Shown here: one piece after another, positions 17,794 through 54,512 of the stretch
Position numbering within the stretch: the first letter of the stretch is position 1
Layout: the number at the start of each line of letters is the position of its first letter
Source of the DNA: Haliotis cracherodii
Lineage: Eukaryota
Length of the DNA stretch: 64,000 nt
Assembly (NCBI RefSeq): GCF_022045235.1
Contig: NW_027266265.1
Coordinates: 34,720,001-34,784,000, forward strand
Direction of reading: 5' to 3'
Position numbers and translations under genes: made by a program
The notes under the pieces: generated by a model
What the model saw: the letters and a program-made list of their open reading frames with translations, nothing else
Told to the model about the DNA's origin: nothing
Databases searched by the model: none

Positions 17794-17840
<47 letters not shown>

Positions 17841-20800: not shown

Positions 20801-23800
20801 AGAATAATAGGGAGTACGGGCCGAGGTGGGTAACTCTGGAGTAACAGGGTAAGGGCTATAGTGTTTCAACTGTCTCTCTGTTCCAGTACGGTCTGTTTGT
20901 AAAGGTAGAGAAGCTAAAGAACTGTGCAGCATCAGGTACAGTAAAACTTAATATTTAATATAGTATATTAACATTACTTAGAAATGACTACTTGACAATT
21001 ATATTTGGTACCAAGTCTGATAATGCAAATGTAATGCACACAGTGCTGAGAAAACAAACAATATTACTTCAATGTTAATCATGTAAATAACAATTCTAAA
21101 ACAGTTAATATTTTTTAATCTTATTCCACACCCTCTATACACTCCCTAAAACACGACTGTGCCATGCTGACAGCCTGAATAAACAAACATTGTCTGCCTG
21201 CACCATGTGCACAAGCCATGCCTAGTAAAGTCCGTGATTTGGGAAACACAAATTCCGAAACAAAATTATGAGCTAATTTACTTTTTGAGTCAAGCCTATA
21301 TTTAGAACCGTTATATTACATCTAAAACATTATTTAATTTTTTTTAAATCTCTAAATGCTTACTGGTACTCATTTTGGGAAAAACCCAACAGAGTGATGA
21401 ATAGATAGGTAAAAAATATTGGTTACCAATGAAAAATGTAATAACCCAATTAAAATAGAAACCTTCGAGTAAAAACTCAATTGCTCAAAAAGTTATCTGG
21501 AGCTCTGGATGAACTGCACATGCTCTCCTTTTCGTAGTAAATGCACCACAACACATGCACTACACCGCGTTCTGTGACTTTATCCACTAGTCAGAAGCCG
21601 GAGTTCATTAAAATTATGTTCAGTCTCAAAAGCATGGTAAGCTCAGGTAAATAATAGCAGGGGTAGAAACTAACAGTTTTAGTCCAGTAGTCCTTATAAG
21701 TATAACACATAACAAAACGCATATAAATGGCAAATTTCTACTACCGGTAGTCCTTATAATACCTTAACTATTGGGCACTTTTGCAAGGACTACAAGACTA
21801 GTGCTAATTTCCAATGCTGAATAGCCCACATAACATTACTAAATTCTACTAAAAATTATGCTAAGAGCCAAGTTCAGGGTAGCAGTCGCAAGGGTTTTGG
21901 CACAGACAGAACACATGAAGCTACAACTGCCTTCCAACCTTCCAACCCTGTTGCTGACTGCAGAGATAATACAGATCCAAAGTTCAGCCCAGAGTTCAGT
22001 CATCCTGAACCTTGCATGATCTCAACCCTTGCCTAGCACACACAGTGAACATGCCCCTATACACTGAATACATGGTAACTACTCCATCGTGTGGTTTACC
22101 TTCACAGCTACCCTTTCTCCCTCATGGGTGACAGCACGATGGACTTGAGCGAGACTGGCAGCAGCGATTGGTTCCTCCTCAAACTCAGAGAACATTTCCT
22201 TTGGAGTCTTTCCAAAATCTTCTAAAAATAGTTGTTGGACCTGTAGTTGGGATACAGTGAGTTCATAAACATAGTAAAACACAACAGAGGTCAAACCAAA
22301 ATACAAAAATGATCGGAATAATTCTTACACATGAATGAGTTTAGTTTAACACCACTTTGAACAGTATCTCAGTTATATCACGTCACGCAGCTTCATGTAG
22401 CATGTGTAGCAGTGAGTGAGTGAGTGAGTCGGCTTGATGTGGGAGGAAAGCCGGAAGTGATGCAGGTCTCTGACGCTTAACATTTTGGTGAAAACCACAA
22501 GCACGAGTATGGTGCTGACAAACCTAGAAACATAATCGGGACAAACCTGGACTCGAACCCATGATTAATGTTTCTGGCTTGCCCAAGGTACGTAACTCTG
22601 CACTTATACTTATAGGAGGAGAGCCTGAAGGGATGCAGATGCTTACCACATCAGTGAAGTGAAACCAACAAGAATGAGTATGGTGGTGACAAACCTAGAA
22701 ATGTGGGTAAACCTGATTTGAACCCAGAATCTTAGATTTCCGGTCAGCGTAAGAGATGCAATACTGCAGGGCATGATCTAGTGAGTGAGTGATATCTTAA
22801 AGTCACATCGGCAGTATTTCAGCTACATTGTGACTATGAAAGGTTGTACATAGTAAATAAATACAATAACTACACTTATCACCAATTTGATGGCTTAATT
22901 AGAATGTTCACACTGAGATAGAATTTTGATCATCTACCCACATCAACGATATGTCGTCATTCTCATTCCTCTTCCAGACTATCACCTACCTCATGTGGTC
23001 CACGTGCCAGCGCCTTATCTTGCAGAGCAACCAACACATCAACATATTCTCGAGGTAGGATGTGGTTCAGAGATACAAGACCCTGTCCAAGTTTTATATA
23101 CAACCCTCCATTCTGCAAGCAGCCAAGCAACATCCTCTCAGCTGCCCGCCGATGACATCCTTTGATCGTTCGATCATATTCCTCTCCATCCTCATCAAGG
23201 TTCCATAGAGACCATTTGTAGTCCAGAGAGATTAAAGTACCAATCACTAGAGACCTAAAATCACACATGATCATACTTATAAATATTTACTGCTAAAACA
23301 TTTGTCATGTTCACCGGATCTGACCTGATACATGTTACAATATGAGATTGAGTCTTGCTAAGCTTTGTTCCGGGTTAGAATTGGTCAACTTTTGCTTGTC
23401 GTACTAAAGTACTAAGTACTAAGTCAGCTAAACAGATTGGGTGCACAGGCCATTATAAAGCTGGAACATTGATGAGTGTTTAACAACATACAAACATATA
23501 ATGTACACTCACAAGTCTGAAAAATTATCCGTAAGGTTCACTCGGAATTTTCAGACACGAGCCCTTTATGTGAAAATTCCAAATATTCCAGAGGTACACC
23601 CACACTTGCCCATATAGCACAATGTTAAAATGCCCCATTGTATTTGAAATGTGGGCCTTTTTTCAAATTTAGGGGCTAGAAGCACAAGGCCCCATCCTAG
23701 AATTATCCCTGGGGTCACCCCAGTATGTTCAACAATGGAGCCCTAGTGCAGACTCAGAGGTTAAATAGGTCCCCTTTCCATCTCATATAAGTCAGATGTT

Positions 23801-25177: not shown

Positions 25178-28100
25178 GGCGTTCCTTCCTGCTTCTCCTT
25201 ACTTTGCATCGTAGGCCATCAATCTGAAAACAATTATATGAACAAACAGTCATAGCGAGTAATAACACAGTACCTATACCTTGTTTCCTTTAAGAAGGGT
25301 TTTAATTTATTACTCACCCATGAAGAGAAGACCCGTCTAATATCAATACACATTTATAAAACAAATACAAATTTTGTGTTCGCTGTGCCTTAACCTTGGT
25401 ATAATTGAAAATATCTGGATATTTTTATATAGTATGGTGTAGTTTTCTATCAGGAATAAATGTGCAAAATATTTCTTCAATTGGCCTTTGTTTAATGAAG
25501 CACTGACAGTCAGAAATCGTCCACCCTCTTCACAGAGCCTTATGTCCAAACAATTCAGCAGGCTAAAAGTTCAACAGTGTTATATAACACCAAGTATGGA
25601 TGCGACTATATTTTGTCATGGTCATTCCAAAGGTGGCATCAGTATCACGGTGCAACTGTACTCCACATCTACTCTTCTCCGAGATGGATAATCTACTCCT
25701 GATAGACACTACTATTTTGCATACCCTAAGAATGTATCGCAAAACCTGCAATATTATTGACATATTTTACTTGAATTTTCAAGTTGTTTTTTTATAGTTG
25801 CCTATGATCTTTCGCAGGACACAGGAACAAATATGATATACAGAAATTATACAAATACTCACTTTTGCATTAAAAGGTTCAGAGATTCACTAATAAACAA
25901 AACCTTATGTCATTTAGCATATCACACTGCATCTATTAACACCCTTGGACTTTGTGTTGCAAATGAGAGTAACCCTCTTTGCAAAAGGGGGAGGATAATA
26001 AAAATATTGTCCATATGTCAACTGATGCAATCGCATGTCGTGAAATTTTTGTGCTCCGAAAATGCCTAAATGGATTAGCTAGATGCTAATTACAATCAAT
26101 TTTATAACAGATAAACAATCTGCCGCCCATATGAAATCACGCAGTCAACATGACATGATGCAATGGTCCCTCATCAGGTTTCCCTAACCTACACTCAACG
26201 AAGAGTGAAGCTCTGAATGAAGATGTTCCAAACTTGGTAAGGCTAATGTGAACATGTTTTTAAAATCGGCATCTTATAATCATCTCATAGAAAGTTTACC
26301 TTATTGCCAGGTTACACCTTGAGTAAGTCGAATCATGAGCTACAAATGTTGCATTCATATGTCCCCCTTATATCAGTTTGTTGTTTAACACCGAACTCAG
26401 CAATATTCCAGTTATATGACGGCGGTCTGTAAATAATCGAGTCTGGACCAGACAATCCAGTGATTGATATCTTGAGCATCGATTCACGCAATTGGGATCG
26501 ATGACATGCATCAACCAAGTCAGCAAGCCTGACCACCCGATCACTTTAGTTTGCCTTTAACGACAAGCATAGTCACCTTTTACGGCAAGCATGGGTTGCT
26601 GAAGACCTATTCTACCCAGAATCTTCACGGGTCTCATATTAAGGGTGTAATGCTTGATCAAGCTAATAATGCAACATAATTGTCCATGAGTGAATGAGTG
26701 TAGCCTTACCCTGCTTTCAGGAATATTCCATCAATATATCATGGGGAAACATCAGAAACGAGCTCCACACATACCCAAGTGGTGTATCATGCCCAGGTGC
26801 TCGACATTACGAGCGAGAATAGCTCCAAGCACATGTCAAACCATTCAAGATGATAGTCCAAAATAAGCAAGTTTTGAATCCACAAAGAAAAAGCTGATAC
26901 TAGAGCTGGGACGAGACCAAATTCACTACCAGGGTACCCACCCCTCTATTATCCGACACTACCCGAGGTACAAAATGTCCGATTGGGATTAGTTTGACCA
27001 TAGCCAAGGACAGAATGTATGTGGATACATGTATAAAACAATCTGGTCATGCATACACTGATGTTGACTGAAGTTTTATCTTTATTCAAACATAAAAATC
27101 AGAAGGAATGGATGCATAGTCAGAAAGAAATCTGAACATTAGGACTTGTAGTGTAACCATATAGATCTAGTGTCCTAGATCATTTTTGTCATTAAACATC
27201 ATATTACGTGACTAACCATGGGTCTGGGTAGTACTGTGGGTACCCAGATCCTTCTAAGAACCCACCCAAGTCGAGTAGCTGAGTTATGGTTCATATATCA
27301 CATTCATTAATGTTCATTCTCATACATTACAACGCTGACTGATTAATATGGATATCAGAATGAAATCAAAATGACACTTTGACAGGCCAAACAAAATGAC
27401 AGAAAATGTCTGATATCACATTCACTATCAGTACTACTCATTGTCACTAATTATAAAAAGTTAACCGATAAATACTAATACAGGATGACAAATAATAAAG
27501 CATGAATGTATTTCATCATGCAAAGACACCGACGTCAATATGAAACAAACTGACATGTCTTTTTCCCAGCATCATATTGTCAAAATGAATCAATGCCCTT
27601 GACCACTTCTCATTTTTTCTCAGATTTAGATTGTATGTCAGTACTCGAGACCTTTGCTTACGACACGAGTCCGTCTAGTTTCTAAACTCGACCGGTTAGA
27701 GTAGGCCCACCCGAATACCCTTCATAAGGTCAGTGTCCTATCGAAAAGGCCTCAGTGTTCTGTACTCAAAACAATGTCATTTGCAACCAGGAACTGACGT
27801 TATGCACTCTTCCTTTTACTTATGAAATGATCAATTAAATGTGCTAACTTAATGTCAAGCACTGTATAGCAAATGGAACCACGTACCAACTGTGGACACG
27901 GGCTACAACACCGTCTTCTCATAACGCAACATTGTCGTGTTTATCTTCCCACCAAGCGTTGGTCGCTGTGAACTCTAGCGGGTAATACAAAAGACGGAGT
28001 TAGCTGTCATTGAAAACCTGGATCAGGCGTTTCTAAAACGAACTACGAGTAACTATAGTCCCGTGTGTCTAATAATTGTCCAAACTAAATCGTTGAATTA

Positions 28101-31030: not shown

Positions 31031-32089
31031 CAGATTGGTTCGAGATTGCAGACTAACGGAAAATCAACCAACTACTCCCTTACATTCTTACTAATTTCAA
31101 TTAAAGATGATAGTTTTAATGAAATAGAAATTCAAATTGACAAACAAACAAACTAATTCATCAGCGGTAAGTGTATTCGCTGTCACGACAGTCGTCACTT
31201 GTTTGTAAACACAACGGTCATTCGGTTGCGAGTTCAACTCCAAGCATGGTTGGGGCCACCTATCACAGTGGGGAGTTTTGACTGCTGGCAGCGATAGTAT
31301 AGAGAGCTCCGCAAACAGACTATCGCCGTGAGGAGCTTGATGCCACACTACAATCTAAGAAGGTGCACTGAAGTCTCTGAGGGGAACTACAATCACGGAT
31401 GTACACACCAACCACGGAGGGTACACATCGACCACTTCAAAAAGTATAACAACGTCAGGGGTACACTTTAACCCATAAGCAGCACTGCAATCTAAGGAGG
31501 TACACTGCAACCTTCGAAAGTACACTGCATTCTCAGGAGGTACACTACAAACATCAACAACCACTTTAGGAGGTGCAGCCACTATATTTCACAAATTACT
31601 TTCAAATATGTTTTGGTAGCTCACATTAGTATTGGACACTGACAGGATGTTTAGGTTTTTTTAACTGTCACTTCCAACAGTTCAGTATCATCTTATGTTG
31701 TGGTCAACTGCATCTGGAACTACTCTGGAACCAGCCAACTTACCATGCTTCTCAATACCCTCGTGGAGGTTCCGGGTTAGACTTCCCAAGCAGCCTATGC
31801 TTGTCACCCCAGATGTTTAAGCATCGGATGATGAATTGGTCAGGCTCAGTGACTGTTGATTGTCAACATACACCGGCGATGTGTATCTTTGTTTATAATA
31901 TTTGGAACTGGTCTGCCTGGTCCAAACTCGATATTTTGTTGGTATCGAATGTAGTTGTTATAGAACAAACGCCGGGGGTATGTTATTGTACTGACAATAT
32001 GCTACTGACTTGTATCTCGGGTAGATCATGTGATAGCAAACAGTTTACCACCACTGTTGGTAATTAATCCTAACCATCTTTGCTTTGCT

Positions 32090-32465
32090 TTCCTTAACCC
32101 ATTCATGTTCCTCATCCCAGCTCGGTCTGGGGAGAAACTTGGCTTCTTGATGGCTGTCTTTGTTTCTCATACAATGTTCCTGAGTCTGATCCACGGCAAC
32201 ATGCCACCGTCCTCGGACAGCACATCCAGGCTCTCTCTGTACCTGTTGATGAACGAGATCCAAGGATTCCTCACCATCTTTGCTTCTATCATTGTGCTCG
32301 TGGTTCATCACCAGAAAGAGGAGGCACAGACCAACACAACATCCTCGGACACAAACCCTCTTCTGGACCGTGCAAGTCCTGTAACTGGGAACGTTTACTT
32401 GACTGTGTATTTTTTGTCATATCTCTGACAAACCTGGAGCCAGCATCTTGATCCTGTTCATTTAG
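32090..32465 (+). pseudogene. 5'-truncated, frameshifted copy of the Cys-loop receptor gene (end of M1 to M4)
   Basis: LNPFMFLIPARSGEKL...HHQKEE homologous to downstream copies; no extracellular domain; frameshift before M4. Confidence 0.88.
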
Positions 32466-33153
32466 AAGATGAAAAGAATTAGGAACGAAAATTAGTTTTG
32501 AGATGCAAAATTAGTACTATTAAATCTACAGGTAAGCTAGTTTTTACATTAAAGACATGGTAAATGTAAATGTTTATCTCCATTCTATCATGAAAACACG
32601 AAACGCTGTCTGATGTTGGAGAAGTCAGTAAGTGAAGCGGTTTTCATTGACCGTATTGTTTTGAGTGCATTGTCGACTACACACCGATAAATGAGGTCTT
32701 CATAGATCGGATGATGAATTGGTCGGGCTCAGCAGCTGTTGATTGTCAACATACACCGGCGATGTGTATCTTTTTCACAACATTAAGAACTGATTTGACT
32801 GGTCCAAACTCGATATTCTGTTGGAATTCGAATGTAGTACGAATACTGTCTTGTATCTCTGGTAGATCATATGATTGCAAACAGTTTACTACCACTGTTG
32901 GTGGTCATTACAACTTTTGCTATAATGGACAATTGTCATGTTTATATACTCAATGTTAAAATACAGCAGTTGGAATTTCCAGTGGTTCACGTGAAAGTTC
33001 CAGGTTCGATTCCTAACATGGGCAAAATGTGTTAAGCCCATTTGTTGTATCTTCCTCTGTGGTATTGCTGGAATATTGCTCAAACTGAAATGACACACCT
33101 CACATTATCAAGAAGATTCTTGAATACACAATGCCATTTAGAAAGTGGTCAAA

Positions 33154-33470
33154 TGTAACAAATGTTATATTTGGGATAACATTTTTTTAGTAAAGTGCAG
33201 ATTCTCGTACTTTTGGGGGGTTGAGTCCCGTCCGGAATTCGAACCCACACTTGCCAATTTACACATGTCAGAGGTGTACTCAAAGTACGTGTTCTTGACT
33301 ACAAGTTGTCGGACTTTCATTTTTTGTGGAAGCCTCGGTGTCTGAGTGGGTAAGAACGCTGACTTTGTGTGCTGGCGATTAGGTGCCTCACTCTGGGACT
33401 CAACCCCCAAAAAGTATGAGAATCTGTACTTTACTAAGAAAGTGTTATCCCAAATATAACATTTGTTACA
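33154..33470. mobile_element. Foldback/MITE with ~75-bp inverted repeats
   Basis: tgtaacaaatgttatatttgggataac...gttgagtccc versus gggactcaac...atttgttaca; absent from the other array spacers. Confidence 0.75.
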
Positions 33471-34150
33471 AAAGAAGATTCTTCTGTGTGAATCTTTATT
33501 ATTGTTGAGTGGATGTTCATGTGCACCTGCACGTTTATATGTCATATGCGTTGGAGACTTTTTACATATTATATTACCATGGATAATTCATTTATTGTGT
33601 TCGCAAAATCGAATGTTTTTACACTGTGATTTTTTGTTTCCTCATGTTGTACATTAGCCAGATTACATATCTGTCCAACACATGCAAACAAATCCAGTAT
33701 ATGCATAGCTGTCATGACAACTCTAAACTCTAAACAATTATAACGATTTTATTAGAAATGCACATGTAACATTTACAAGCGGGTTTCCGAAATGCACTTA
33801 GATGCAAATGACAAAGCAAAATACCCTTCAGATGGATATCGATCGACTGGGACTATCCGTACATAATGCATACAGCATCCGCTTCAAATTCCACTGGGAT
33901 TACTAAAAGTATTTTTCTTCATTCATTAAATCGATTCTGGACAGTTTGTTATGGTTACCATTGACCTAACACGGTTCCAAGGACCTCTCTGTTGTAACAG
34001 TGGTTGTAGAATGGATTATGCCAGTGTTTCAAGGACTATAAAGGACGAGCTTGCCTATTACGCCCAGTCGAATCTGTTACATCGGATTATCGAAACTGGT
34101 TATTCTCTAGCGTTGACACTGTATGTTGTATTGCAGTGAAGTGATTTAAT

Positions 34151-35266
34151 ATGGACCGTTACATGAGAATCGGTATGGTCAGAATATGCCTTCTCCTGTT
34201 TGTATTTATGGGTGCAAAAGCAGATTCAGAAACAAGAAACTCTTTAAGTCATTTGAGGAAGGATCTTCTTGCACAACAAGATAATGCTGTTCCTCCGTTC
34301 AAAGGAAACTCGAAATCAGTAGACGTTTCACTGTCCTTCACCCCGGTCACGATCCTAGACCTGAACTCTGTCACCCAAGTGTTGTCTGTGACTGGATATC
34401 TTAAGTTAAGCTGGCTTGACTCGAGACTCACTTGGAATGTTCACAATCATTCAGATGTCCGATTGATGGAGGTAAGAAGTGGCGACATATGGACACCCAC
34501 TATATCTGTTGGCAACAGTGTATCAGACATGAATCCAGTGGAAACAAAGATACCTATTGTTGTCATGCATTCCGGGTACGTGACATGGCAAGCTGTCGAT
34601 GTTTTCCGGACAGTGTGTAAGATAGACGTTTCACGATTTCCTTTCGACACTCAACACTGTCCCCTGCTCTTCACTCCTCCCTATGGATACACACTTAACA
34701 TTACAATTGATGATGACGATATTCCAGGAAAGAATTTCTTGGGTGAAAGCGGTGAATGGAAAACTCTAAGAGTTTCTGCGCTCCTCTCATTCATAGAAAC
34801 ATTTGAAATTGCCGAATACATGCTCACATTGGAAAGGAAATATGTTTACTATCTCATTAACTTTCTCTTCCCCATGGGCCTCATGTCCATCCTTAACCCA
34901 TTCGTGTTCCTCATCCCAGCTCGGTCTGGGGAGAAACTTGGCTTCTTGATGGCTGTCTTTGTTTCTCATACAATGTTCCTGAGTCTGATCCACGGCAACA
35001 TGCCACCCACCTCGGACAGCACATCCACGCTGTCGCTGTACCTGTTGATGAACGAGATCCAAGGATTCCTCACCATCTTTGCCTCTATCATTGTGCTTGT
35101 GGTTCATCACCAGAAAGAGGAGGCCCAGACCAACACAACATCCTCGGACACAAAACCCTTTTCTGGATCGTGCAAGTCCTGTAACTGGGAACGTTTACTT
35201 GACTGTGTATTTTTTGCCGTATTTTTGACAATAGCTGGTGGCAGCATCTTGATCCTGTTCATTTAG
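34151..35266 (+). CDS. Intronless atypical nAChR-like Cys-loop ligand-gated ion channel subunit, copy 1
   Basis: Signal peptide, IWTP, Cys-loop CKIDVSRFPFDTQHC, four TM segments, GEK cation motif; TATAAA at 34037. Confidence 0.92.
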   Translation: MDRYMRIGMVRICLLLFVFMGAKADSETRNSLSHLRKDLLAQQDNAVPPFKGNSKSVDVSLSFTPVTILDLNSVTQVLSVTGYLKLSWLDSRLTWNVHNHSDVRLMEVRSGDIWTPTISVGNSVSDMNPVETKIPIVVMHSGYVTWQAVDVFRTVCKIDVSRFPFDTQHCPLLFTPPYGYTLNITIDDDDIPGKNFLGESGEWKTLRVSALLSFIETFEIAEYMLTLERKYVYYLINFLFPMGLMSILNPFVFLIPARSGEKLGFLMAVFVSHTMFLSLIHGNMPPTSDSTSTLSLYLLMNEIQGFLTIFASIIVLVVHHQKEEAQTNTTSSDTKPFSGSCKSCNWERLLDCVFFAVFLTIAGGSILILFI

Positions 35267-36855
35267 GGGATAAAAAGAATTAGGAACGGAACACGCATCA
35301 TGATTTTTAAGATGTAACATTTAGCATGAACAATTCTACAGCTAACCTAGTTTTACTTTGAAAACACGATATGTGTATGTTTATCTCCATTCTATCATGC
35401 TAACACAAACGCTGTTTGGTGTTTGTAAAAGGTCTTAGTGAAGCAGTTTGGTTGACCCCAATGTTTGGAGTGGATTGTCCATGAATTAATTAAACACCAA
35501 TTAAATGCTTTTGTTCAAAGGATGGCGATGTATATTGGTTCTACATTTGTATTCTTTGCCAGTAAAGATGATAATCATTGACAGTGTGTGTCACAGCTAC
35601 TTCGTAAGCAAAGTGTGTATCCTTAAAAATTAAGCAAGAATTGCAATGTTGTCCTTAATATTTGCTATTTAGTAACATTCCCTATGCATGTCGCACAAGG
35701 TCTTCGAGAATCAGCTGATGAATTGGTCAGACTCACTGACTGTCGATTGTCAACATACTCCGGCAACGAACTGGTTTGTCTGGTCCAAACTTGACATTTT
35801 GTTGGAATTCGAAAGTAGCTGGAATTCTGCTGAGTGAGGTGTAATAGAACAAACGCCAGGTGTTTGTTATTGTACTGACAATATGTTACTGTCTTGTATC
35901 TTGGGAAGATCTTATGATAGCAAACAGTTTACTACCACTGTTTGTGTCATTACAACTTTGGCTATAATGGACAATTGTCATGTTTACATACTTAATGTAA
36001 ATATACTGCAGTGGGATATTCCAGCTGTTAATGCGATTGCGCGTAATGTCAAAGACTCAGGTTTGATTCCCCACATGGGCACAATGTGTGAAGCCCATTT
36101 CTTTTACCTTCCTCTGTGATATTGCTTGAATGATGGTAAGTGGATAAAATTATTCTCAAACTAAAATAACACACTTCACATTATCAAAAAGATTATCCTA
36201 TGTGAATTTTTATTATTGTTGAGGTGGTGTTCATGTGCACCTGCAAGTTTATATGTCATATGCTTTGGAGACTATTAAACATATCACATTACCATAGATA
36301 GTTCATTTATCGTGTTTCGCAGATTGAATGATTTTACATAGTGATTCTTTGTTCCCTCATGTTGTACATACGTCAGATGACATATATGTCACACATGCAA
36401 ACAAATCCAGTATATGCATAGCTTTCATGACAACTCTAAACTCACAATTATAACGATTTTATCAGAAATACACATGTAACGTTTACAAGCTGTTTTCCCA
36501 AATGTACATAGATGCAAATGACAAAGCAAAATACAGTTTAAATGGATATTGATTGACTTGGACCATCCGTACATAATGTGTACAGCAATCACTGCAGATT
36601 CCACTGGGATAACTTAAAGTATTGCTATACATTCATTTAATTGCTCCTGGACAGTCTGTTATGGTTACCATTGACCAGACATGGTTTAATTGCCCTCTCT
36701 CTCTCTCTCTTGTAACAGTGCCTGTAGCCTGTTTTGTGGCAATGTTTCACGAGGGTTATAAAGGACGAGATGTGCGCACAGTCGAATCTGTTATGCCAGA
36801 TTATTGAAACTGGTTATTCTCTAGCGTTGACACTGTATGTTGTATTGTATTTAAT

Positions 36856-37971
36856 ATGGACCATTTCGTGAGAATCGGTATGGTCAGAATATGCCTTTTC
36901 CTGTTTGTATTTATGGGTGCAAAAGCAGATTCAGAAACAAGAGACTCTTTAAGTCATTTGAGGAAGTATCTTCTTGCACAACAAGATAATGCTGTTCCTC
37001 CGTTCAAAGGAAACTCGAAATCAGTAGACGTTTCACTGTCCTTCACCCCGGTCACGATCCTAGACCTGAACTCTGTCACCCAAGAGTTGACTGTGGCTGG
37101 ATATCTCAGGGTAAGATGGCTTGACTCGAGACTCACTTGGAATGTTCACAATCATTCAGATGTCCGATTGATGGAGGTAAGAAGTGGCGACATATGGACA
37201 CCCACTATATCTGTTGGCAACAGTGTATCAGACATGAATCCAATGGAAACAAAGATACCTATTGTTGTCATGCATTCCGGGTACGTGACATGGCAAGCTG
37301 TCGATGTTTTCCGGACAGTGTGTAAGATAGACGTTTCACGATTTCCTTTCGACACTCAACACTGTCCCCTGCTCTTCACTCCTCCCTATGGATACACACT
37401 TAACATTACAATTGATGACACCGATATTCCAGGAAAGAATGTCTTGGGTGAAAACGGTGAATGGAAAACTCGAAGAGTTTCTGCGCTCCTATCATTAATA
37501 GAAACATTTGAAATTGCCGAATACATGCTCACATTGGAAAGGAAATATGTTTACTATTTCATTAACTTTCTCTTCCCCATGGGCCTCATGTCCATCCTTA
37601 ACCCATTCGTGTTCCTCATCCCAGCTCGGTCTGGGGAGAAACTTGGCTTCTTGATGGCTGTCTTTGTTTCTCATACAATGTTCCTGAGTCTGATCCACGG
37701 CAACATGCCACCCACCTCGGACAGCACATCCACGCTGTCTCTGTACCTGTTGATGAACGAGATCCAAGTATTCCTCACCATCTTTGCCTCTATCATTGTG
37801 CTTGTGGTTCATCACCAGAAAGAGGAGGCCAGAACCAACACAACATCCTCGGACACAAAACCCTTTTCTGGATCGTGCAAGTACTGTAACTGGAAACGTT
37901 TACTTGACTGTGTATTTTTTGCCGTATTTTTGACAATAGCTGGTGGCAGCATCTTGATCCTGTTCATTTAG
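36856..37971 (+). CDS. Intronless atypical nAChR-like Cys-loop subunit, copy 2
   Basis: Near-identical paralog 2705 bp downstream; TATAAA at 36757. Confidence 0.92.
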   Translation: MDHFVRIGMVRICLFLFVFMGAKADSETRDSLSHLRKYLLAQQDNAVPPFKGNSKSVDVSLSFTPVTILDLNSVTQELTVAGYLRVRWLDSRLTWNVHNHSDVRLMEVRSGDIWTPTISVGNSVSDMNPMETKIPIVVMHSGYVTWQAVDVFRTVCKIDVSRFPFDTQHCPLLFTPPYGYTLNITIDDTDIPGKNVLGENGEWKTRRVSALLSLIETFEIAEYMLTLERKYVYYFINFLFPMGLMSILNPFVFLIPARSGEKLGFLMAVFVSHTMFLSLIHGNMPPTSDSTSTLSLYLLMNEIQVFLTIFASIIVLVVHHQKEEARTNTTSSDTKPFSGSCKYCNWKRLLDCVFFAVFLTIAGGSILILFI

Positions 37972-39589
37972 GGGATAAAAAGAATTAGGAACGGAACGCG
38001 CATCATGATTTTTAAGATGTAACATTTAGCATGAACAATTCTACAGCTAACCTAGTTTTGCCTTGAAAACACGATATGTGTATGTTTATCTCCATTCTAT
38101 CATGCTAACACAAACGCTGTTCGGTGTTTGTAAAAGGTCTTAGTGAAGCAGTTTGGTTGACCCCAATGTTTGGAGTGGATTGTCCATGAATTAATTAAAC
38201 ACCAATTAAATGCTTTTGTACAAAGGATGGCGATGTATATTGGTTCTACATTTGTATTCTTTGCCAGTAAAGATGATAATCATTGACAGTGTGTGTCACA
38301 GCTACTTCGTAAGCAAAGTGTGTATCCTTAAAAATTAAGCAAGAATTGCAATGTTGTCCTTAATATTTGCTATTTAGTAATATTCCCTATGCATGTCGCA
38401 CAAGGTCTTCGAGAATCAGCTGATGAATTGGTCAGACTCACTGACTGTCGATTGTCAACATACTCCGGCAACGAACTGGTTTGTCTGGTCCAAACCTGAT
38501 ATTTTGTTGGAATTCGAATGTAGCTGGAATTCTGCTGAGTGAGGTGTAATAGAACAAACGCCAGGTGTTTGTTATTGTACTGACAATATGTTACTGTCTT
38601 GTATCTTGGGAAGATCTTATGATAGCAAACAGTTTACTACCACTGTTTGTGTCATTACAACTTTGGCTATAATGGACAATTGTCATGTTTACATACTTAA
38701 TGTAAATATACTGCAGTGGGATATTCCAGCTGTTAATGCGATTGCGCGTAATGTCAAAGACTCAGGTTTGATTCCCCACATGGGCACAATGTGTGAAGCC
38801 CATTTCTTTTACCTTCCTCTGTGATATTGCTTGAATGATGGTAAGTGGATAAAATTATTCTCAAACTAAAATAACACACTTCACATTATCAAAAAGATTA
38901 TCCTATGTGAATTTTTATTATTGTTGAGGTGGTGTTCATGTGCACCTGCAAGTTTATATGTCATATGCTTTGGAGACAATTAAACATATCACATTACCAT
39001 AGATAGTTCATTTATCGTGTTTCGCAGATTGAATGATTTTACATAGTGATTCTTTGTTCCCTCATGTTGTACATACGTCAGATGACATATATGTCACACA
39101 TGCAAACAAATCCAGTATATGCATAGCTTTCATGACAACTCTAAACTCACAATTATAACGATTTTATCAGAAATACACATGTAACGTTTACAAGCTGTTT
39201 TCCCAAATGTACATAGATGCAAATGACAAAGCAAAATACAGTTTAAATGGATATTGATTGACTTGGACCATCCGTACATAATGTGTACAGCAATCACTGC
39301 AGATTCCACTGGGATAACTTTAAGTATTGCTATACATTCATTTAATTGCTCCTGGACAGTCTGTTATGGTTACCGTTGATCAGACACAGTTTAATTGCTC
39401 CCTCTCTTTTGTAACAGTGCCTGTAGCCTGTTTTGTGGCAATGTTTCACAAGGGTTATAAAGGACGAGATGTGCGCACAGTTTAATCTGTTATGCAGGAG
39501 TAGTGAAACTGTGGTTATTCTCTAGAGTTGACACTGTATGTTGTATTGCAGTTAAGTGATGTAATAGGGACCCTTACGTGAGAATCGGT

Positions 39590-40681
39590 ATGGTCAGAAT
39601 ATGCCTTCTCCTGTTTGTATTTATGGGTGCAAAAGCAGATTCAGAAACAAGAGACTCTTTAAGTCATTTGAGGAAGTATCTTCTTGCACAACAAGATAAT
39701 GCTGTTCCTCCGTTCAAAGGAAACTCGAAATCAGTAGACGTTTCACTGTCCTTCACCCCGGTCACAATCCTAGACCTGAACTCTGTCACCCAAGAGTTGA
39801 CTGTGGCTGGATATCTCAGGGTAAGATGGCGTGACTCGAGACTCACTTGGAATGTTCACAATCATTCAGATGTCCGATTGATGGAGGTAAGAAGTGGCGA
39901 CATATGGACACCCACTATATCTGTTGGCAACAGTGTATCAGACATGAATCCAGTGGAAACAAAGATACCTATTGTTGTCATGCATTCCGGGTACGTGACA
40001 TGGCAAGCTGTCGATGTTTTCCGGACAGTGTGTAAGATAGACGTTTCACGATTTCCTTTCGACACTCAACACTGTCCCCTGCTCTTCACTCCTCCCTATG
40101 GATACACACTTAACATTACAATTGATGACACCGATATTCCAGGAAAGAATTTCTTGGGTGAAAATGGTGAATGGAAAACTCGAAGAGTTTCTGCGTACCT
40201 CTCATTAATAGAAACATTTGAAATTGCCGAATTCATGTTCACATTGGAAAGGAAATATGTTTACTATCTCATTAACTTTCTCTTCCCCATGGGCCTCATG
40301 TCCATCCTTAACCCATTCGTGTTCCTCATCCCAGCTCGGTCTGGGGAGAAACTTGGCTTCTTGATGGCTGTCTTTGTTTCTCATACAATGTTCCTGAGTC
40401 TGATCCACGGCAACATGCCACCCACCTCGGACAGCACATCCAGGCTCTCTCTGTACCTGTTGATGAACGAGATCCAAGGATTCCTCACCATCTTTGCCTC
40501 TATCATTGTGCTCGTGGTTCATCACCAGAAAGAGGAGGCCCAGACCAACACAACATCCTCGGACACAAAACCCTTTTCTGGATCGTGCAAGTCCTGTTAC
40601 TGGGAACGTTTACTTGACTGTGTATTTTTTGCCGTATCTCTGACAATAGCTGGTGGCAGCATCTTGATCCTGTTCATTTAG
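39590..40681 (+). CDS. Intronless atypical nAChR-like Cys-loop subunit, copy 3
   Basis: Upstream ATGs changed (AGG, GTG); ATG of signal peptide MVRICLLLF retained at 39590; TATAAA at 39456. Confidence 0.9.
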   Translation: MVRICLLLFVFMGAKADSETRDSLSHLRKYLLAQQDNAVPPFKGNSKSVDVSLSFTPVTILDLNSVTQELTVAGYLRVRWRDSRLTWNVHNHSDVRLMEVRSGDIWTPTISVGNSVSDMNPVETKIPIVVMHSGYVTWQAVDVFRTVCKIDVSRFPFDTQHCPLLFTPPYGYTLNITIDDTDIPGKNFLGENGEWKTRRVSAYLSLIETFEIAEFMFTLERKYVYYLINFLFPMGLMSILNPFVFLIPARSGEKLGFLMAVFVSHTMFLSLIHGNMPPTSDSTSRLSLYLLMNEIQGFLTIFASIIVLVVHHQKEEAQTNTTSSDTKPFSGSCKSCYWERLLDCVFFAVSLTIAGGSILILFI

Positions 40682-46180: not shown

Positions 46181-49100
46181 ATGACTCGTGAAACGGCGTT
46201 AGTGCTCTTAAGCATTATAGTTTATGTATCATCTGCGCATAAGGTTGAAAAGGCTGCAGCCATCCCCACAAGATATAACGCATGGGCAGCCGGATCCAAT
46301 AACTGTTCCTGTGCGTCCGATATCACTGCCCTCAAGAGAGAAATCCTCCAGGAAGTTCATCAGCGACAGGAACTCAAGGGTGCTTTGGAGACCTATGTTT
46401 CAGAACTTTATGAACTCAGAGCTTTAGTCACTGCTCTAAAAAATGCAACCAAAGGTAAGTGTTTATTCGGCCATAGGACTGTCAATTTAACACTTTCTAC
46501 TTATTCTTTTAATAAGGGAGGTGGATAGCATATTGGTTATAGCGTTCACTCTTCAATCTGAAGGTCGGGTCCGTTTCACCTTATCTAAAAAGTGCCAATG
46601 AAATAGTTCAAACGCCGTCTACAAGGAGACGTGGCAATCCGATGTGAGGATATATACCGAAACGTCACATCATAATAGAATAAAGAAGTTGTCATTAATA
46701 AAATATCTTGTCTTCACTGTTACTTACCAAATTCTAAAAAAATGACCCATGAAGATCCGGGGTAGAATAGGTCTTCAGCAACCCATGCTTGCCGTAGAAG
46801 GCGACTATGCGTGTCGTAAGAGGCGACTAACGGGATCGGGTGGTCAGGCTCGCTGACTTGGTTGATGCATGTCATCGATCCCAATTGCGTGGATTGATGT
46901 TCATGATGTAAATCACTGTATTGTCTGGTCCAGATTCGATTATTTACAGACCGCCGTCATATAGCTGGAATATTGCTGAGTGCGGCGTTAAACAACAAAC
47001 CAAACAACCAACCAATCTAAAAAATGCCAATCAAACAGTTTATATTGGAAACATCCGACACACTAACCACTTAAGCATACCAGAAGGCATAATTTAGCAT
47101 GGATTATGAATTTCTATATTTAATAAATGTACCAGTTGGTTTTGATTAGTCTCAGACATGTGTTTAGACAAACAGATATTGCTAGGTCAATTACTTCAAA
47201 GAAAAACCGACAAAAAACGGGAACATAAGGTACACGTCAAAATAGAGAATTGCATCGGACATCATCATTATGCAAAGAAATAACATAAGCAGATCAATAT
47301 GCTGAATGCAAAAGACAAACTTTACAATATGCTGAATGCAAAAGACAAACTTTACAACGTATGTTAGTGATCATCTGGCCAGGTTATGCAAGTACTTATC
47401 CTGTGAGCAAGTGGTTATCATGATTATGGCTCAGACAGTGTTTGGAGCATCCCTTTAAATTTAGTTTAATTTGAAAAGAATGAAAACAGTGCATACAACA
47501 CACCCAACGGTATCATTTCTTATTAACCAACTATTGTCTATACAACCTCGTGAATCATAGGATAAGTTTAATGAGCCGCAGTTTGTTGTTCAGAGATTTG
47601 CCTTGATCGTGATTTTTGGTTTGTCAGCGCCATGCCCGTACTGGTGGGTGTCAACCTTTTTAGACCTGCATCATTTTGAACTTTTCTCCCCCAAAGCTGA
47701 CAAGTTGTTGTATAACTGAAATCATGTTCAACAAGGTGTTAGCCCACCTCTTTTTTAAGCCTTACAATATTTGATAAAACGCCTACAAATTGTAAATTTT
47801 GTGGAAACAGCAAAAATATGCATGATTTATTATGAATTTATATCTAGTTCATCAAACAGTTTACTGTGAAAGCCTCCAGAGGTGATATGAAATGGGGTTT
47901 AACAACGTGTTCAACAATAAACACCTCTAGAAACCAGTCTGCAAGAATACACATGATTAATAATGCTTGTTATTTCCCATTGCTCCTCTTTTTGTCAATG
48001 CAGAGATACGTCAGTAGTCTGTAACATATTTGCTGTATTCGATGATAGCCGCACAATTCTTTATACGAGTCGTTCTATCTATTCTATCAGTATGGGTTTT
48101 TTTCTTATACCAGGATGATAAAAAATGGTCACGCTATGAAACTGATTTATTTCAAGGACCCGTGAAGATCCGGTTTATAATGTGTGTTCAGCAACCCATG
48201 CTTTCTTATAAGAGGCGACTTTGCTTGTCGTAAGAGGCGACTAACTGGATCGGGTGGTCAGGCTCGCTGACTTGGTTAATGCATGTCATCGTTTCACAAT
48301 TGCGTAGATCGATGCTCACGATGGCAGTTACTTGATTGTCTGGTCCAGACCGCCGTCATATAGCTGGAATTATGCTGTGAGCGGTGTAAAAACAACAAAC
48401 AAAAATCAAACATACTAACAAGTGTAAATCGGTCTATAAATACAACTGAATGTTATACAAAAGGCGGAACTCTCACCGATGATTAAGGAATTCCTTGTAC
48501 ATAAGAAGATTAGGATTTGTTGATATCTGCGACAAACAGTTCCTTGTATATCTGGCATTCTTAACCTTCTTTATATAATGCTATGGCCATCCGATTAGTC
48601 GCTATGCCAAAAGTGAAAACGAAAAGTATGATTCAAACCATTTAATAAGGGACATTTGTGTCATGGAAGCAGTAACGGTATAAGTATTATAACGTCCATA
48701 TTACAATAGTATTTTCTGCACATTACTACAGCTACACAAATGTTAAGCCCATTTCTGGTGTCCCCCGTCGTGATATTGCTGGAATATTGCTAAAAGCGGC
48801 GTAAAACAATACTCACTCACTATAACTACACATTTTATTTTAGTGGCCCGAGCTACTGCATTGTCCGCTCAGAGAGACCCACCAGCAATCGCCTTCACTG
48901 CCAAGCTGAGCTACAACCGAGAGCTACAACCTCTGGACACCGTCATCTTCGACACAACTATTACCAACAACGGCGAGGGGTACAATTCAGAAACTGGTAA
49001 ATTCACGGCGCCCCTCTCTGGGTCGTACTACTTCTTTGCTACGGTGTTATCCGGCTACAACACCAAAGTGGAAACTGCGGTCATAGTCAATGACAAAGAA

Positions 49101-49277
49101 GTATCCCGAATGTACTCAGGCGCACATGACGCGCATGGATCTGGCAGTAACGCGGCCGTTGTAAACCTCCGCAGTGGTGACAGCGTTTGGATAAGGCTCT
49201 TGTATCAAGGTGGCACTCACGTCCACGGCTTTTACAGCACGTTTTCGGGGTTTATCCTCAATGAGAAGGATCCTTGA
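46181..49277 (+). CDS. Secreted C1q-domain-containing protein (signal peptide, coiled coil, gC1q); exons 46181-46454 and 48844-49277
   Basis: TATAAA at 46127; G|gtaagt and tag|TG phase-1 intron; AFTAKL..VIFD..YNSETGKFTAPLSGSYYF..STFSGF; AATAAA at ~49481. Confidence 0.92.
46744..47030 (+). mobile_element. Non-autonomous retroposon family C (LINE-5'UTR-like head, shared 3' tail, (AAAC)n)
   Basis: Copies at 26375-26633(-), 30160-30425(+), 48157-48400(+), 49890-50137(-) plus fragments; tail ggaatattgctgagtgcggcgttaaac resembles that of families A and B. Confidence 0.8.
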
Positions 49278-52047
49278 AAACTTTGCAAAATAAACTGTGG
49301 TTTTCGTGAACAATATGACATTTCCTTGCAGGGCGAAGAAGCTAGTTCGCGTGTGTGTGCTATCCACGCTCTGGTCCAAGAAGTTTTTGTATTATTTTTT
49401 TTGTATTGTGAGAGTTGAATAGGAACGCCTGTCTCTTAATCTAGACGTGTGTTATGTTGATTATAATGATTTTACAATTTAATAAATATACTTTGATATA
49501 AAAAAAACGTCTTTGTTGTCATGTTATATTTCATTGTCGATATTCTCCAAGTTTTCCTTTATTCGACTCTTACGTTTTTCTAAGGACATTGTATATGGAT
49601 AGTACGGATAAGTTCAGGTATTTTACTTTAGGTTTCAGAATGCATGTATGACATAATATATGTCAGATGTATGCATTGTTGAACACGACGTTACAATGCT
49701 ATCAGCCATTCTCCAATAAAAGGTTTTCACGTGAATCACTTACACCTGTTCATAGTTAGAGACAAGAAGTTTTACTATTGAATGGGTGTAAAATGTTACC
49801 AGTGGATTGATGACATGGTTCTTATTATTCTACTTTTAAGCATTTCAGTGATTCGTTTCTTAAAATGTCAGGTTTGTTTTTTGTTTGTTGGTTTGTTGTT
49901 TAACGCCGCACTCAGCAATATTCCAGCTATGACGGCGATTTGTAACGAATAGAGTCTAGACCATGCTATCCAGTGATTGACATCATGAGCATCGCTCCAC
50001 GCAATTGGGATACGATGACATGCATCAACCAAGCCTGACCACCCGATCCCGTTAGTCGCCTCTTAACCAAGCACAGTCGCCTTTTACAGCAAGCATGGGT
50101 TGCTGAAGATCTATTTTACCCCGAATCTCCACGGGTCTAAAATGTCAGGTAAAGGCAATTGTGAACATTTTAAGCATTTTACATCTTCTGCCCTAAAGTT
50201 CAACAGTCATCTGAAGTACAACCTGTACGGTCGTAGAGATATCGTGGATATCCCAAACCACCTATGTTAAGCACAGTCGTGGAAACCTGTCTCTGACATT
50301 ACTCCCATCAACAGACAAGAGACCAGAATTTTCAGCATCTCTGACGCGTTGTGTCTTAGTAGCATTTATCAATGCTGAGACAACTACAAAACAAATATGG
50401 GCCCAGACTTTACATCTGCGCCAAACTGTGTTGCAAAACGAATATATTTCTTAAAGTTTTCTTTACTTATATTTACATACCGGTTTTATTAGTTTTAACC
50501 AAATCAGTAATGGTGCTCTCGTGTCGCTGGATTTACTGGTTCATCGATCACTTGATTGTATGGGTTTTTTTCAAGCTGACGTCGCATGGCAAGAGTGCTG
50601 CTGTTCAACGTCACGCAATAATTACATTTTTTATGCAGATTGTATGAATGGCGGGTGCTAACGGTAGGGTAGGACTTGTTTACCCTTTTAGCAAACACCT
50701 GGTGTCATCACTGGTTTTCAGTAATCCATTCATTTAATTTCCACACCTATTTGCCCTTTACGCCAAATGGAATCTGTTTTGGAAGCAAATCTGGGTTGGT
50801 TATTCCCTTGCATTTACAATATAAAATTTACAACACAAAGACCTAGTCGGGTGTGTTGCAGTGTGATGAAGGTGCTCGATGTCATCGGCAGAAAAGAGTC
50901 CTGAATGTACATCACCTCGCCATGTCTCAGAACACAAAGGTGTAGCAGTTTGATGAAGGTATCACCGCCCGTCATCAACAGCTTACTCACGGGCTCAGGA
51001 TCACATCTGTACAAATTGTCTCCTGTTTCATAACAAAAACTTCCTCAAACTGCACAGCTCCCTTGTTTGACAGGAATTAACTTAACATCGCTGAGACAAT
51101 TTGCGTGTTTGTTTTGAGGGGCTACTGTTGACGCATGACAAGTTAATGCTGACTTTAACGGTTCAAGCACACGAAGCAAACCGCACTGAACAAGCACGTA
51201 AACACAACAGGACAACAACCGCGGACACGGAGATGGAAGTGGTGTGTAGAATGTACGGCTTATTACGTGTATTATGTCGAGTTGGCCCAGATGATGAAGG
51301 TCGACCAGGGCTTAATATCCCATCGAATATAACACCCACGTGGCATAGACCATAAGGCTTTTTGTACTTGGATCCGGGAATCAGGTCTCACGCTTGTATT
51401 TGAAACAAGCTAATATTTGAAATATTATATTCATTTTAAATAACACCCAAGGCCTAAGTTTATTCCTTATATTCATTTTGGACAGTTATTCTCTTTCGAT
51501 TTCAGAAATACATCTTAAAATGCATAATTCTTTTGAACTCTGATGTAACCATATATTTGGACAATGAATTACACGAACGGAGAAGGCGTTGTTTAGATGT
51601 ATATGTTTTGTGCAGTCTGAACATGTAGATTAATACGCTTTTTTCCATACACTACTTGGAGAAGAAACTACTTGTACATATACTGCATGGACATGAGCAT
51701 TATGGGTTTAAAATCAATTCCAATCAAGGTTCGGACCAATGTATGTATATTGGTATAATGATGTTCTTATATACAGCACATCACAGCTTCAGCCAAACAC
51801 AAACCATCCTTTTTGAGAAACATATCACTTTGGTACAAAATGATGATCTTACATACAGTATATCACAGCTTCAGCCACACACAAACACCCGAGGTACAAT
51901 AGTGCAATGGTGGCATTCTATATTTATCTATACATCCAAAATGTATTGGTTTTGTTCAAATGATATACATTTTATTTTATAATTTCATGAGATGAAGTTT
52001 TGGGATATAATAGATCTCTGGGCATATATATATTGAATCCACATCAC

Positions 52048-52176
52048 NNNNNNNNNNNNNNNNNNNNNNNNNNNNNNNNNNNNNNNNNNNNNNNNNNNNN
52101 NNNNNNNNNNNNNNNNNNNNNNNNNNNNNNNNNNNNNNNNNNNNNNNNNNNNNNNNNNNNNNNNNNNNNNNNNNNN
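52048..52176. other. Assembly gap (Ns) next to (TA)n-rich repeats
   Basis: Run of N. Confidence 0.99.
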
Positions 52177-52238
52177 CTTACTCCACTTATTTAATTATTA
52201 CTATATTGTGCCTGAGAGTTAGAACTTTACTGTGCTTT

Positions 52239-52299
<61 letters not shown>

Positions 52300-53140
52300 C
52301 CACATTTAACATCACCAAATCCACTGATCGTCCAGTATATATATATATATTGAATCCACATTAAACATCACCAAATCCATTGATCGTCCTGTATATATAT
52401 ATATATATATATTGAATCCACATTTAACATCACCAAATCCTAGATCGTCCAGTATCGATTTAAAATTAATAACCCGCTTATGTTTATTACCAGAATTTAC
52501 AACATTTAGTTTCACAAACGATCAATCAGTCTGGCAATCAAAAATATTTCAGAGAAGGTTTCATAAATATATAACGTCGACACCAGAGACGTCAACACCT
52601 CAACGCTGCCTTACTAACCCAAGTCACAACAAAATGTATACACATTTGACTACCAGCTTAGTAACGAAATGTGTGTCACAATTCAAAATAGTTGTACGTG
52701 AGTACTGAGTGGTTGAATGCACTATCCAGGTTTAAGTGCAGTCAGGATTATTTCAGAAATGCTAGTTACGGATTTCTTACGAAGACAACAAACACAAGCA
52801 TTAGGTTACATATTTTATTGATGATTTGTATTCAGCATATAATAATCTATAGTACAGGTTATGATTATGAGTATGATATGATGAGGTAACTGTTCATCAC
52901 AGGTGGTACCCCAATCGACTCTACATGCACTTTCATCAAGTAAGTAATGTGTATGATTCATCGACGGAAGAGTGTATGAATAATCAATCAACATTTGTTG
53001 GATGACACAAATTTGACAAAAAGATGCGTTTGTGTGACGAGATGATACAGATAGCAATGAAAATGTTTGGCAAGGAAACGTTCCAGTTCACGCCATTTTC
53101 AGTCAATTTTTAACCAAGAGCTTCCGCAATCTGACACCAC

Positions 53141-54512
53141 CTATCCAAACAGTGACACGGCATATCCAGAGAATGTGCTCCATTGTCCGTGAACATAATC
53201 CCCGTTGCCGTAGAACAAATTGATTGAAACCTCATCGCCTTGTTTCAAGTTCACGAGAATAGAGTTTGTTCCTGAACCTCTGTTGTTGAAGGAGCCCGAA
53301 TACAACCGTCCCATTTCTGCCCCGTTGACCACAAACATTGTTTCAATGGTGGTGTTATAGCCACTGAGGATGGTGGCGCTGAAATGGTAGACACCGATGG
53401 CAGGTGATGTGAACTTGCCGGTGTAGGGGTCGTATGCACCAGCATTGTTGATGATGATGTCGTCGAAGATTACAGTGTCGACGTCCTTGAGATATGGTCT
53501 GTTGGTGCCAACGCGGGCCGAGAAAGAAATGTCCTGTGATTGTCCAAGAGCTGGTCGAACTGAAAATAGATGAAGGCATAGGACGTTACAGTGAAGCATG
53601 GCACCGAGAATATCCATAATGTAGTCTCGTTATAGTGATAACGTATGTAGCTTCACGGCAGTATAGCGAGCCTATAGAAGATCAGACAATATCAGAAAAT
53701 GAACAAGTCAATATCAGAAAATCCATCAGACAATATCGGAAAATAGGTCAGACAATATCAGAGAATGGATTAGACAATTTCAGAAAATGGATCAGACAAT
53801 ATCAGAAAATGGATTCGACAATATCAGAAAATGGATGAGACAATATCAGAAAATGGATAAGACGATATCAGACAATGGATTAGACAATGTCAGAAAATGG
53901 AGACCATACTAGAAATATGAATTTTAATGTGATAAGTTTACGTTCATAGCAGAGATATTTTATGATTTTGAATTATTTTGTATCGCTTATATTTCAAACG
54001 GTGGCATAATAACGAGGTTAGTGTTAAATTAAGATTCGATGTCGTGAACTTTTTCTGGACGTCATTACTCAGATGCAATGGTGAGCAAGGTACAAATTTA
54101 GGATACTCGAGAATTTTATTTGTTAAAGAAGTTCCTGAACACTGAAATATCTCATAATAAACCAATCATGAACGCCGTAAACTTATATCGGTGGCAAGTA
54201 CTAACGTCCGTTCCTCAACGCCCTCATTCCGTTCTGCATGTTGTATAACTCCGCCGACAGCTCGTCCATTCTGTGCTGAAAACTCTCAAGTCTTCCATGA
54301 GAAAGTCTAAGTTGTTTTTCGAGATGTGAAATTTCCTCCAAACACGAACACACTTCGGTTGTTCCCGCCGTCTGGAAGTTTGAATCCGGCTCCCGAGGGT
54401 TTGTTGTAGTGTCTCGGGAATTTTCGCCATTTGTCGGAAACACGGGCCACAGGGCGGTGGCTATCTGAGCCAAGCACATCCCGAACAGAAGGGCCGATGT
54501 TGTGATAGACAT
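53141..54512 (-). CDS. Secreted C1q-domain-containing protein, paralog; exons 54512-54206 and 53559-53141
   Basis: TATAAA ~70 bp upstream; C|gttagt and ttttcag|TT phase-1 intron; SFSAR..VIFDDIIIN..YDPYTGKFTSP..STFSGY. Confidence 0.92.
53680..53900. repeat. 21-bp minisatellite in the C1q intron
   Basis: Unit gacaatatcagaaaatggatt, ~10 copies. Confidence 0.85.

Follow-up and report, generated by a model that had tools for sequence, protein, structure and literature searches.

Gene Content of the Array

The DNA analyzed here, referred to as the window, is a stretch of 64,000 nucleotides from Haliotis cracherodii (assembly GCF_022045235.1, contig NW_027266265.1, forward-strand positions 34,720,001 to 34,784,000) that contains a tandem array of genes resembling nicotinic acetylcholine receptor (nAChR) subunits. 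The array consists of three single-exon open reading frames (ORFs), copies 1 to 3, repeated with a period of ∼2.7 kb, and all three match Neur_chan_LBD (PF02931) and Neur_chan_memb (PF02932). A related gene, d4, is an inverted single paralog located 1.35 Mb away on the same contig. The features of the array are collected in Table 1, in which pS denotes the proportion of synonymous sites that differ.

Upstream of the three ORFs lies a remnant, copy 0, which has no extracellular domain and whose frame is broken ahead of M4. The last 680 bases of the spacer that follows it are 15-16% different from the sequence upstream of copies 2 and 3. Directly upstream of copy 1, at 34083-34117, is an ∼35-base element that recurs many times in the genome, as indicated by loose ends and a very high depth of contigs. 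The true start of copy 1 is likely the second ATG, at 34175, because copy 3 has AGG in place of the first, as do contigs of runs X1 and X5. Copy 2 carries 10 private codon changes, 9 of them replacements, scattered along the gene.

Table 1. Features of the nAChR-like array (positions in the window)
Feature	Position	Strand	Remark
Copy 0, broken, 3′ part only (M1 to M4 region)	32087-32465	+	PF02932 match, E 6e-10
Older homolog of spacers A and B	32466-34150		
Copy 1, nAChR-like subunit of non-alpha type without introns (371 codons)	34151-35266	+	
Tract A of copy 1, codons 33-131	34247-34543	+	Near-identical DNA to d4 (pS 0.055)
beta2/loop D island of copy 1, codons 77-89	34379-34417	+	Ancestral-type V77, S79, K85
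Second, looser difference patch of copy 1, codons 188-225 (loop F, beta9, beta10)	34712-34825	+	
Tract B of copy 1, codons 216-322 (beta10 to M3)	34796-35116	+	Near-identical DNA to d4 (pS 0.05-0.09) and to copy 0
Spacer A, apparently one product of the youngest duplication	35267-36855		
Copy 2, chimera: copy-3-like to about codon 206-214, then copy-1-like	36856-37971	+	
beta2 island of copy 2	37084-37122	+	Copy-3 type, L89
Inferred unequal-crossover zone in copy 2	37472-37522		Max-chi break
Spacer B, twin of spacer A	37972-39565		
Copy 3, subunit without introns, 363 codons counted from the ATG	39590-40681	+	Closest is H. rufescens protein P0018
beta2 island of copy 3	39794-39832	+	E77, T79, A81, R85, R87, R89

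Family Assignment, Predicted Fold, and Binding Pocket

The encoded proteins have the hallmarks of Cys-loop pentameric channels, namely a Cys-X13-Cys loop with C131 and C145 conserved and four transmembrane helices. The named proteins nearest to the three copies are from Haliotis, and the best sequence match of copy 1 in the PDB is the human alpha7 nAChR (E 8e-41). By pairwise scores, copy 1 is closer to alpha7 (143 bits) than to the octopus receptors (CRT1, 107 bits). A monomer model built from a 96-sequence alignment (pLDDT 82.5; a first model with a pLDDT of 44.5 was discarded) adopts the nAChR fold, with TM-scores of 0.76-0.87 to nAChR chains. In this model, strand beta2 corresponds to codons 77-89 (model strand E52-64), beta9 to codons 203-215, and beta10 to codons 218-229, and loop C is predicted to be a 2-residue turn.

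The genome contains at least 110 matches to this family (110 of 314 candidates scored), and the locus is a member of the molluscan intronless nAChR-like expansion, with its single-exon, tandem, lineage-specific paralogs. Single-exon, tandem genes of this expansion are described in the main text of Jiao et al. (2019; PMC6896357).

The copies share with alpha7 the fold class, the Cys loop, and the GEK motif, but differ from it in the pocket aromatics, the vicinal cysteines, and the short intracellular loop, as observed in copy 1. The aromatic box that binds acetylcholine (Y92, W148, Y187, Y194, and W54) is not preserved in copy 1, where Y92 is replaced by Gly121 and W54 by Tyr83, W148 of loop B is missing, and loop C is shortened. 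Vicinal cysteines of loop C were found neither in copy 1 nor in the 89 paralogs examined. As judged from these residues, the copies do not qualify as acetylcholine-binding alpha-type subunits. The GEK motif ahead of M2 is kept in all copies (ARSGEKLG), and a cation-type pore is predicted from this motif alone.

Mosaic Structure and Age of the Copies

An earlier note on this sequence had taken the near-identity of the two ∼1.6-kb spacers as a yardstick for the divergence of copies 1 and 2. The spacer cores are indeed nearly identical (11 differences in 1394 bases), but the last ∼190 bases are far more different. The identity also fails as a yardstick, as the spacers apparently both arose in the most recent unequal crossover and give no date for the extracellular domain of copy 1; the flanks that do date the genes have diverged by 15-20%. 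Sites at which copy 2 sides with copy 3 and not with copy 1, set against sites at which it sides with copy 1, number 94:12 upstream of the genes, 16:6 in codons 1-214, 1:8 in codons 215-371, and 1:26 downstream. In the coordinates of copy 1, the max-chi break lies at 34767-34781 (p 0.0005 by permutation); the crossover zone of copy 2 is wider than this, because codon 214 holds one more copy-3-like site. By these sites, copy 2 is a chimera of the kind expected from unequal crossover of copy 3 with copy 1. The twin spacers represent the newly duplicated piece, and spacer identity is no clock for the genes in such arrays.

The flanks of copies 1 and 3 are 15-16% apart upstream and 20% apart downstream, whereas their coding regions are only ∼3% apart and coding pS among the copies is 0.02-0.03. 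This discrepancy indicates that copies 1 and 3 are old duplicates subject to homogenization, and gene conversion is very probably the homogenizing mechanism.

The remaining coding differences are concentrated in loops D, F, and C (pS 0.105 and pN, the corresponding non-synonymous proportion, 0.138; no significant excess of pN, P 0.45), as compared with a pS of 0.021 and a pN of 0.015 in the rest of the gene. Because the genes are old and homogenized, and because silent divergence is raised in the loops too, these would be places where difference escaped erasure. The earlier note had inferred diversifying selection on ligand specificity and had named proportional silent change, carried in by one conversion tract, as the finding that would speak against it; proportional silent change is largely what is seen for the three loops together. 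From loop F to beta9 (codons 186-215), pN and pS are about equal (0.101 and 0.096). Near-invariance of M1-M2, to which the note had drawn attention, is present but not special. It extends to silent sites, and copies 1 and 3 do not differ at all over 297 bases encoding loops A, E, and B and the Cys loop, so that these two copies show no difference in three of the six binding loops.

The loop F variants pointed out previously (DDDD/DDTD and NFLGES/NVLGEN) are present, and F196V is private to copy 2. The changes attributed to loop C (LRVSALLSF/RRVSAYLSL and EYML/EFMF) exist too, but they compare copy 1 with copy 3, not with copy 2, and the predicted fold places codons 206, 211, and 214 on beta9 and codons 223 and 225 (EYML/EFMF) on beta10. 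Codon 200 (34748-34750) encodes Ser in copy 1 and the Asn of an NGEW motif in copies 2 and 3 and in d4; this Asn is found in 69 of 89 paralogs across the family.

Contigs of run X5 that span 34684-34822 comprise a copy-1 type (0 differences) and a copy-3-like type (9 differences); among the matches listed for run X1, only the copy-3 type was found over this interval. The copy-3-like variant of X5 lacks one copy-3 change and has others added, and as it thus differs from copy 3, the types appear to be polymorphic mosaics. Raw reads over the locus in X19 (22) and X20 (41) were too thin and were left unused.

The beta2 Island

Between copies 1 and 2, codons 77-87 hold six non-synonymous changes and one synonymous change (VLSVTGYLKLS to ELTVAGYLRVR), exactly as the earlier note had reported for loop D. 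The clustering exceeds chance; 7 of the 30 differences between these copies fall within 33 bases (33-base scan, p 0.002). The same scan gave a p of 0.004 for copies 1 and 3 and no cluster for copies 2 and 3. Windows of 60 bases gave weaker values, with a p of 0.06 for copies 1 and 2 and of 0.016 for copies 1 and 3.

Amino acid differences in the 13 codons of beta2 far outnumber those in the 86 flanking codons in copy 1 versus copy 3 (7/13 versus 1/86), copy 3 versus d4 (5/13 versus 2/86), two H. rufescens paralogs (4/13 versus 1/86), and the d orthologs of both species (3 versus 1), although comparisons across the copies, d4, and H. rufescens share history and are not independent. The flanks are not intrinsically frozen, because 23 of the 86 codons differ from H. 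asinina.

In alpha7, W54 and Q56 lie on the complementary side of the pocket. By alignment, the odd codons of beta2 share this face, and the changed codons are mainly the outward, odd ones (6/7, versus 1/6 of the inward, even ones; p 0.025). Of the 17 canonical pocket positions, only 1 (K85R) differs among the three copies. The copy-3 type of beta2 has gained E77 and arginines at codons 85, 87, and, in copy 3 only, 89.

At codons 77-81 the strand of d4 agrees with copy 1, and at codons 84, 86, and 87, including a silent site, with copies 2 and 3; the d protein of H. rufescens has K85 and S87, as in copy 1. Because d4 mixes the two kinds of codon while H. rufescens d keeps K85 and S87, this pattern suggests that pieces of the strand may have been exchanged between paralogs. 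The E77/T79/R85/V86/R87 type is present in H. rufescens, which implies that the beta2 variants are old; the copy-1 type is similar to that of the d paralog and of H. asinina.

Probable Exchange with the Distant Paralog d4

The search for conversion tracts from more distant paralogs, also advised in the note, revealed two near-identical tracts shared with d4. Over codons 33-131 the pS between copy 1 and d4 is 0.055, and over codons 216-322 it is 0.094; codons 1-32 and 132-215, in contrast, have values of 0.55-0.59, and the stretch beyond codon 322 has 0.36. No flank shared by d4 and the array was found beyond short dispersed repeats, and there is no further copy within ∼10 kb on either side of d4. 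The same two-tract pattern is seen at the protein level in H. rufescens, and species-specific sharing occurs at codons 84-87 and 323-334 (H. rufescens again compared as protein). Because H. asinina differs from both paralogs within the tracts, the exchange between the copies and d4 probably came after the split from H. asinina.

Family-wide Tests of Selection

Family-wide tests drew on 86 of the 106 other matches, which were fetched as a paralog set; positions were mapped to distant clusters by alignment at 25-30% identity, which is uncertain in loops B, C, and F. In 28 independent pairs with at least 85% identity, from which the focal genes were left out, the ratio dN/dS (omega) reached 0.8-1.2 in loops C, D, and F; loops A, B, and E gave 0.44-0.74, the remaining extracellular domain 0.40-0.47, M1-M3 0.21-0.24, and the intracellular loop 0.63-0.74 (about 0.6-0.8 for intracellular loop and signal region). 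For a pocket set fixed by alpha7, omega was 1.26, which is not significantly above 1 (p 0.28).

The site-model comparison of paralogs that had been proposed as a check on the diversifying selection was performed as M8 versus M8a with our own code. Of its 13 runs, 7 were nominally significant. However, 12 of 22 neutral simulations with block-wise trees, built on one cluster (C5), also passed the nominal 5% cut-off, with twice the log-likelihood difference (2dL) reaching 14.0. Thus, dN/dS scans on this intronless nAChR-like family are inflated by recombination.

Only C5 itself, 1 of the 13 runs, exceeds this recombination null (2dL 33.1; 21.1 with block trees). This run used 12 of the 15 genes fetched, three near-twins having been dropped. 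Of the sites behind this signal, five lie close to the pocket (codons 85, 145, 147, 192, and 216) and eight in other places. Codon 85 is among the top sites (posterior 1.0), in a cluster independent of the focal genes. C5 is a tandem cluster of at least 15 paralogs (G000:C5:35.60-35.79 Mb, L029-L035 and L037-L044), and it is a better target for a study of selection than the present locus.

Silent divergence over beta10-M3 is lower than in the extracellular domain in several of 17 other clusters tabulated, most clearly in C56, C9, C5, and C2b; the effect is absent in C27, C3, C2a, and C23b. In C56 (L026, L027, L068, and L069) and C9 (L025 and L036), silent divergence is 0.01-0.14 over beta10-M3 and 0.3-0.8 in the extracellular domain. 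This drop suggests that homogenization of the pore module recurs in the family.

Possible Selection on beta2 and Alternative Explanations

We lean toward the reading that the tandem genes are mosaics of conversion and crossover with a beta2 island retained by selection. Copies 1 and 3 would be old duplicates, and conversion would have erased most of the coding differences between them, silent ones included, and likewise those with d4 over two tracts. Copy 2 would have formed later, by crossover near codons 206-222 that duplicated the spacer too. The beta2 changes would lie on a face predicted to point at the neighboring subunit and the pocket, and they would putatively alter the charge on the complementary face and thereby shift the accepted non-acetylcholine ligand or the partner subunit, over a common cation-type pore. 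The step from the island to ligand specificity is itself putative, because the same face also contacts the neighboring subunit.

Selection, on balance, seems to have kept the beta2 island from being overwritten. Neutral simulations of the outward codons at six depths gave a joint P of at most 0.0085 for six replacements with no more than one silent change; as the beta2 window was picked after seeing the data from among about ten strands, this value is suggestive only. The case from copies 1 and 2, in which five of the seven outward codons changed, is weaker. Import of loop D as one deep tract of the d4 lineage with proportional silent changes was considered and rejected, as about five silent changes would be expected and at most one has a P of 0.009. 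Diversifying selection, which the earlier note had inferred for loops D, F, and C, is plausible for the beta2 strand only and is not supported across the three loops, and it is plausibly a matter of retention against gene conversion rather than of a recent burst.

Several results weigh against selection on beta2. No direct dN/dS test at the locus is significant; loop D, with seven non-synonymous changes and one synonymous change, has a P of 0.32 taken alone, and 0.32-0.41 across tests. For the outward beta2 codons of the focal genes, omega is 3.3 with an interval of 0.5 to over 5, and their canonical pocket set has an omega of 0.32, indicating purifying selection. The focal site-model 2dL of 8.6 falls to 3.0 without the chimera and lies within the recombination null. 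On the trees of 14 other clusters, omega is 0.85 for the pocket, 0.81 for outward beta2, and 0.21 for inward beta2, which fits relaxed constraint. The face assignment comes from the alpha7 alignment and a monomer model, not from a pentamer. Finally, the protein comparison with H. rufescens yielded 0 amino acid sites that group the paralogs by species, and most conversion with d4 may thus have been one or two old events, with the island as the gap between its tracts.

These points lend some weight to a neutral account, possible although the less probable of the two, in which beta2 and codons 188-225 are leftover gaps between conversion tracts, with replacements outward since only the core face is constrained. 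Such an account is favored by the five-fold rise in silent divergence in the same patches, by a loop pS of 0.10 that is near the divergence of the flanks, by the outward and inward beta2 omegas just given, by omegas in loops C, D, and F that stand close to those of the intracellular loop and signal region, and by the zero count of species-grouping sites. It is harder to reconcile with six of seven outward codons changing alongside one silent change, which is improbable even at an omega of 1, with the prominence of the same 13 codons across three pairs of loci and in two species, and with the apparent exchange of beta2 pieces that left both types in existence.

A more elaborate proposal, drawn by analogy and rather unlikely, is that these genes form a chemosensory Cys-loop family of abalone's own, parallel to the octopus receptors, in which conversion would keep the pore and beta2 would be a swappable specificity cassette. 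A GABA (γ-aminobutyric acid)-like settlement cue is known for abalone larvae. The Tyr83-x-Arg85 spacing is that of the loop D pair F65/R67 of the GABA-A receptor, which grips the carboxylate of GABA (PMC13335744). By the same analogy, the arginine-rich beta2 type could sense anionic cues, possibly a GABA-like settlement cue.

Recent duplication followed by quick positive selection on loops D, F, and C for ligand diversification is unlikely. The clustering is real, the octopus chemotactile receptors have selected sites concentrated in the pocket (PMC11526382), and C5 carries a site-model signal in the same genome; however, the age of the beta2 variants, with types matched in H. rufescens and H. 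asinina, contradicts the timing, the spacers do not date the variants, pN equals pS from loop F to beta9, and loops A, B, and E are the same in copies 1 and 3. Also unlikely is an assembly artifact, such as two joined haplotypes, in some part of the array, for which copy 2 would be the first candidate: the private codon changes of copy 2 are absent among the contig matches listed (40 of 48 rows; X1, X5, X19, and X20) and no listed contig piece covers the whole stretch, but contigs drop variants, which makes such absence uninformative, H. rufescens P0002 shares one of these private changes (F235), the X5 contigs show the two main types to be real, and results for copies 1, 3, and d4 would be untouched.

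Relation to Known Systems

The expanded molluscan nAChRs described in the main text of PMC6896357 are likewise single-exon, tandem, lineage-specific subunits with a ligand-binding domain and a transmembrane region, mostly without the principal acetylcholine residues. That main text mentions neither Haliotis nor gene conversion nor positive selection, and the mosaic and island of the abalone locus are not in it. The cephalopod receptors CRT1 and CRB1 resemble the abalone copies in being intronless, derived from nAChRs, and remodeled in the acetylcholine pocket, with variation enriched at pocket-facing sites, as outlined in PMC11526382 and PMC13174522. The latter, a 2026 preprint, presents divergent gastropod nAChR clades as chemosensory candidates. 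As a difference, copy 1 is closer by score to alpha7 than to the octopus receptors, omega at the abalone locus is not significantly above 1, and a chemotactile role of the abalone copies would be hypothetical.

A peak of divergence under gene conversion is a described sign of selection, as in the primate red/green opsins (PMC3924837). The array displays the elements of such a divergence island, with old duplicates whose silent sites are homogenized around a short divergent patch. The opsins, as that article portrays them, share with it the old duplicates, the homogenized sequence, and a short island retained at a functionally placed site; unlike in the opsins, conversion here would act inside a single exon and reach as far as the inverted d4, at a distance of 1.35 Mb. 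A literature search that covered subscription journals thinly turned up no article on either conversion or selection in the intronless nAChRs of abalone or of molluscs at large.

The pattern at this locus is thus real but was over-read, representing a known family with a known evolutionary signature and a usable test system. Subunits that are near-identical but for 13 complementary-face codons constitute a natural experiment on whether this strand governs the choice of ligand or partner, in a family of a hundred-odd molluscan intronless nAChR-like genes.

Other Features of the Window

Exons of an ABC1/ADCK atypical kinase gene (PF03109) occupy the minus strand at ∼7900-25200. Inside an intron of this gene, at 10723-17218, is a DIRS-type retrotransposon with inverted terminal repeats of ∼210 bases (98% identical), a LAP2alpha-like gag ORF, and a reverse transcriptase ORF with a weak Dam-like match, in overlapping frames. 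Pieces of secreted coiled-coil and C1q-domain genes lie on both strands at 46181-54512 (PF00386 at 53141-53617). Stretches of N occur at 52048-52176 and 55778-55928, far from the array. A 546-codon ORF at 60839-62479 has no Pfam match and presumably resembles the first ORF of a LINE-type element.

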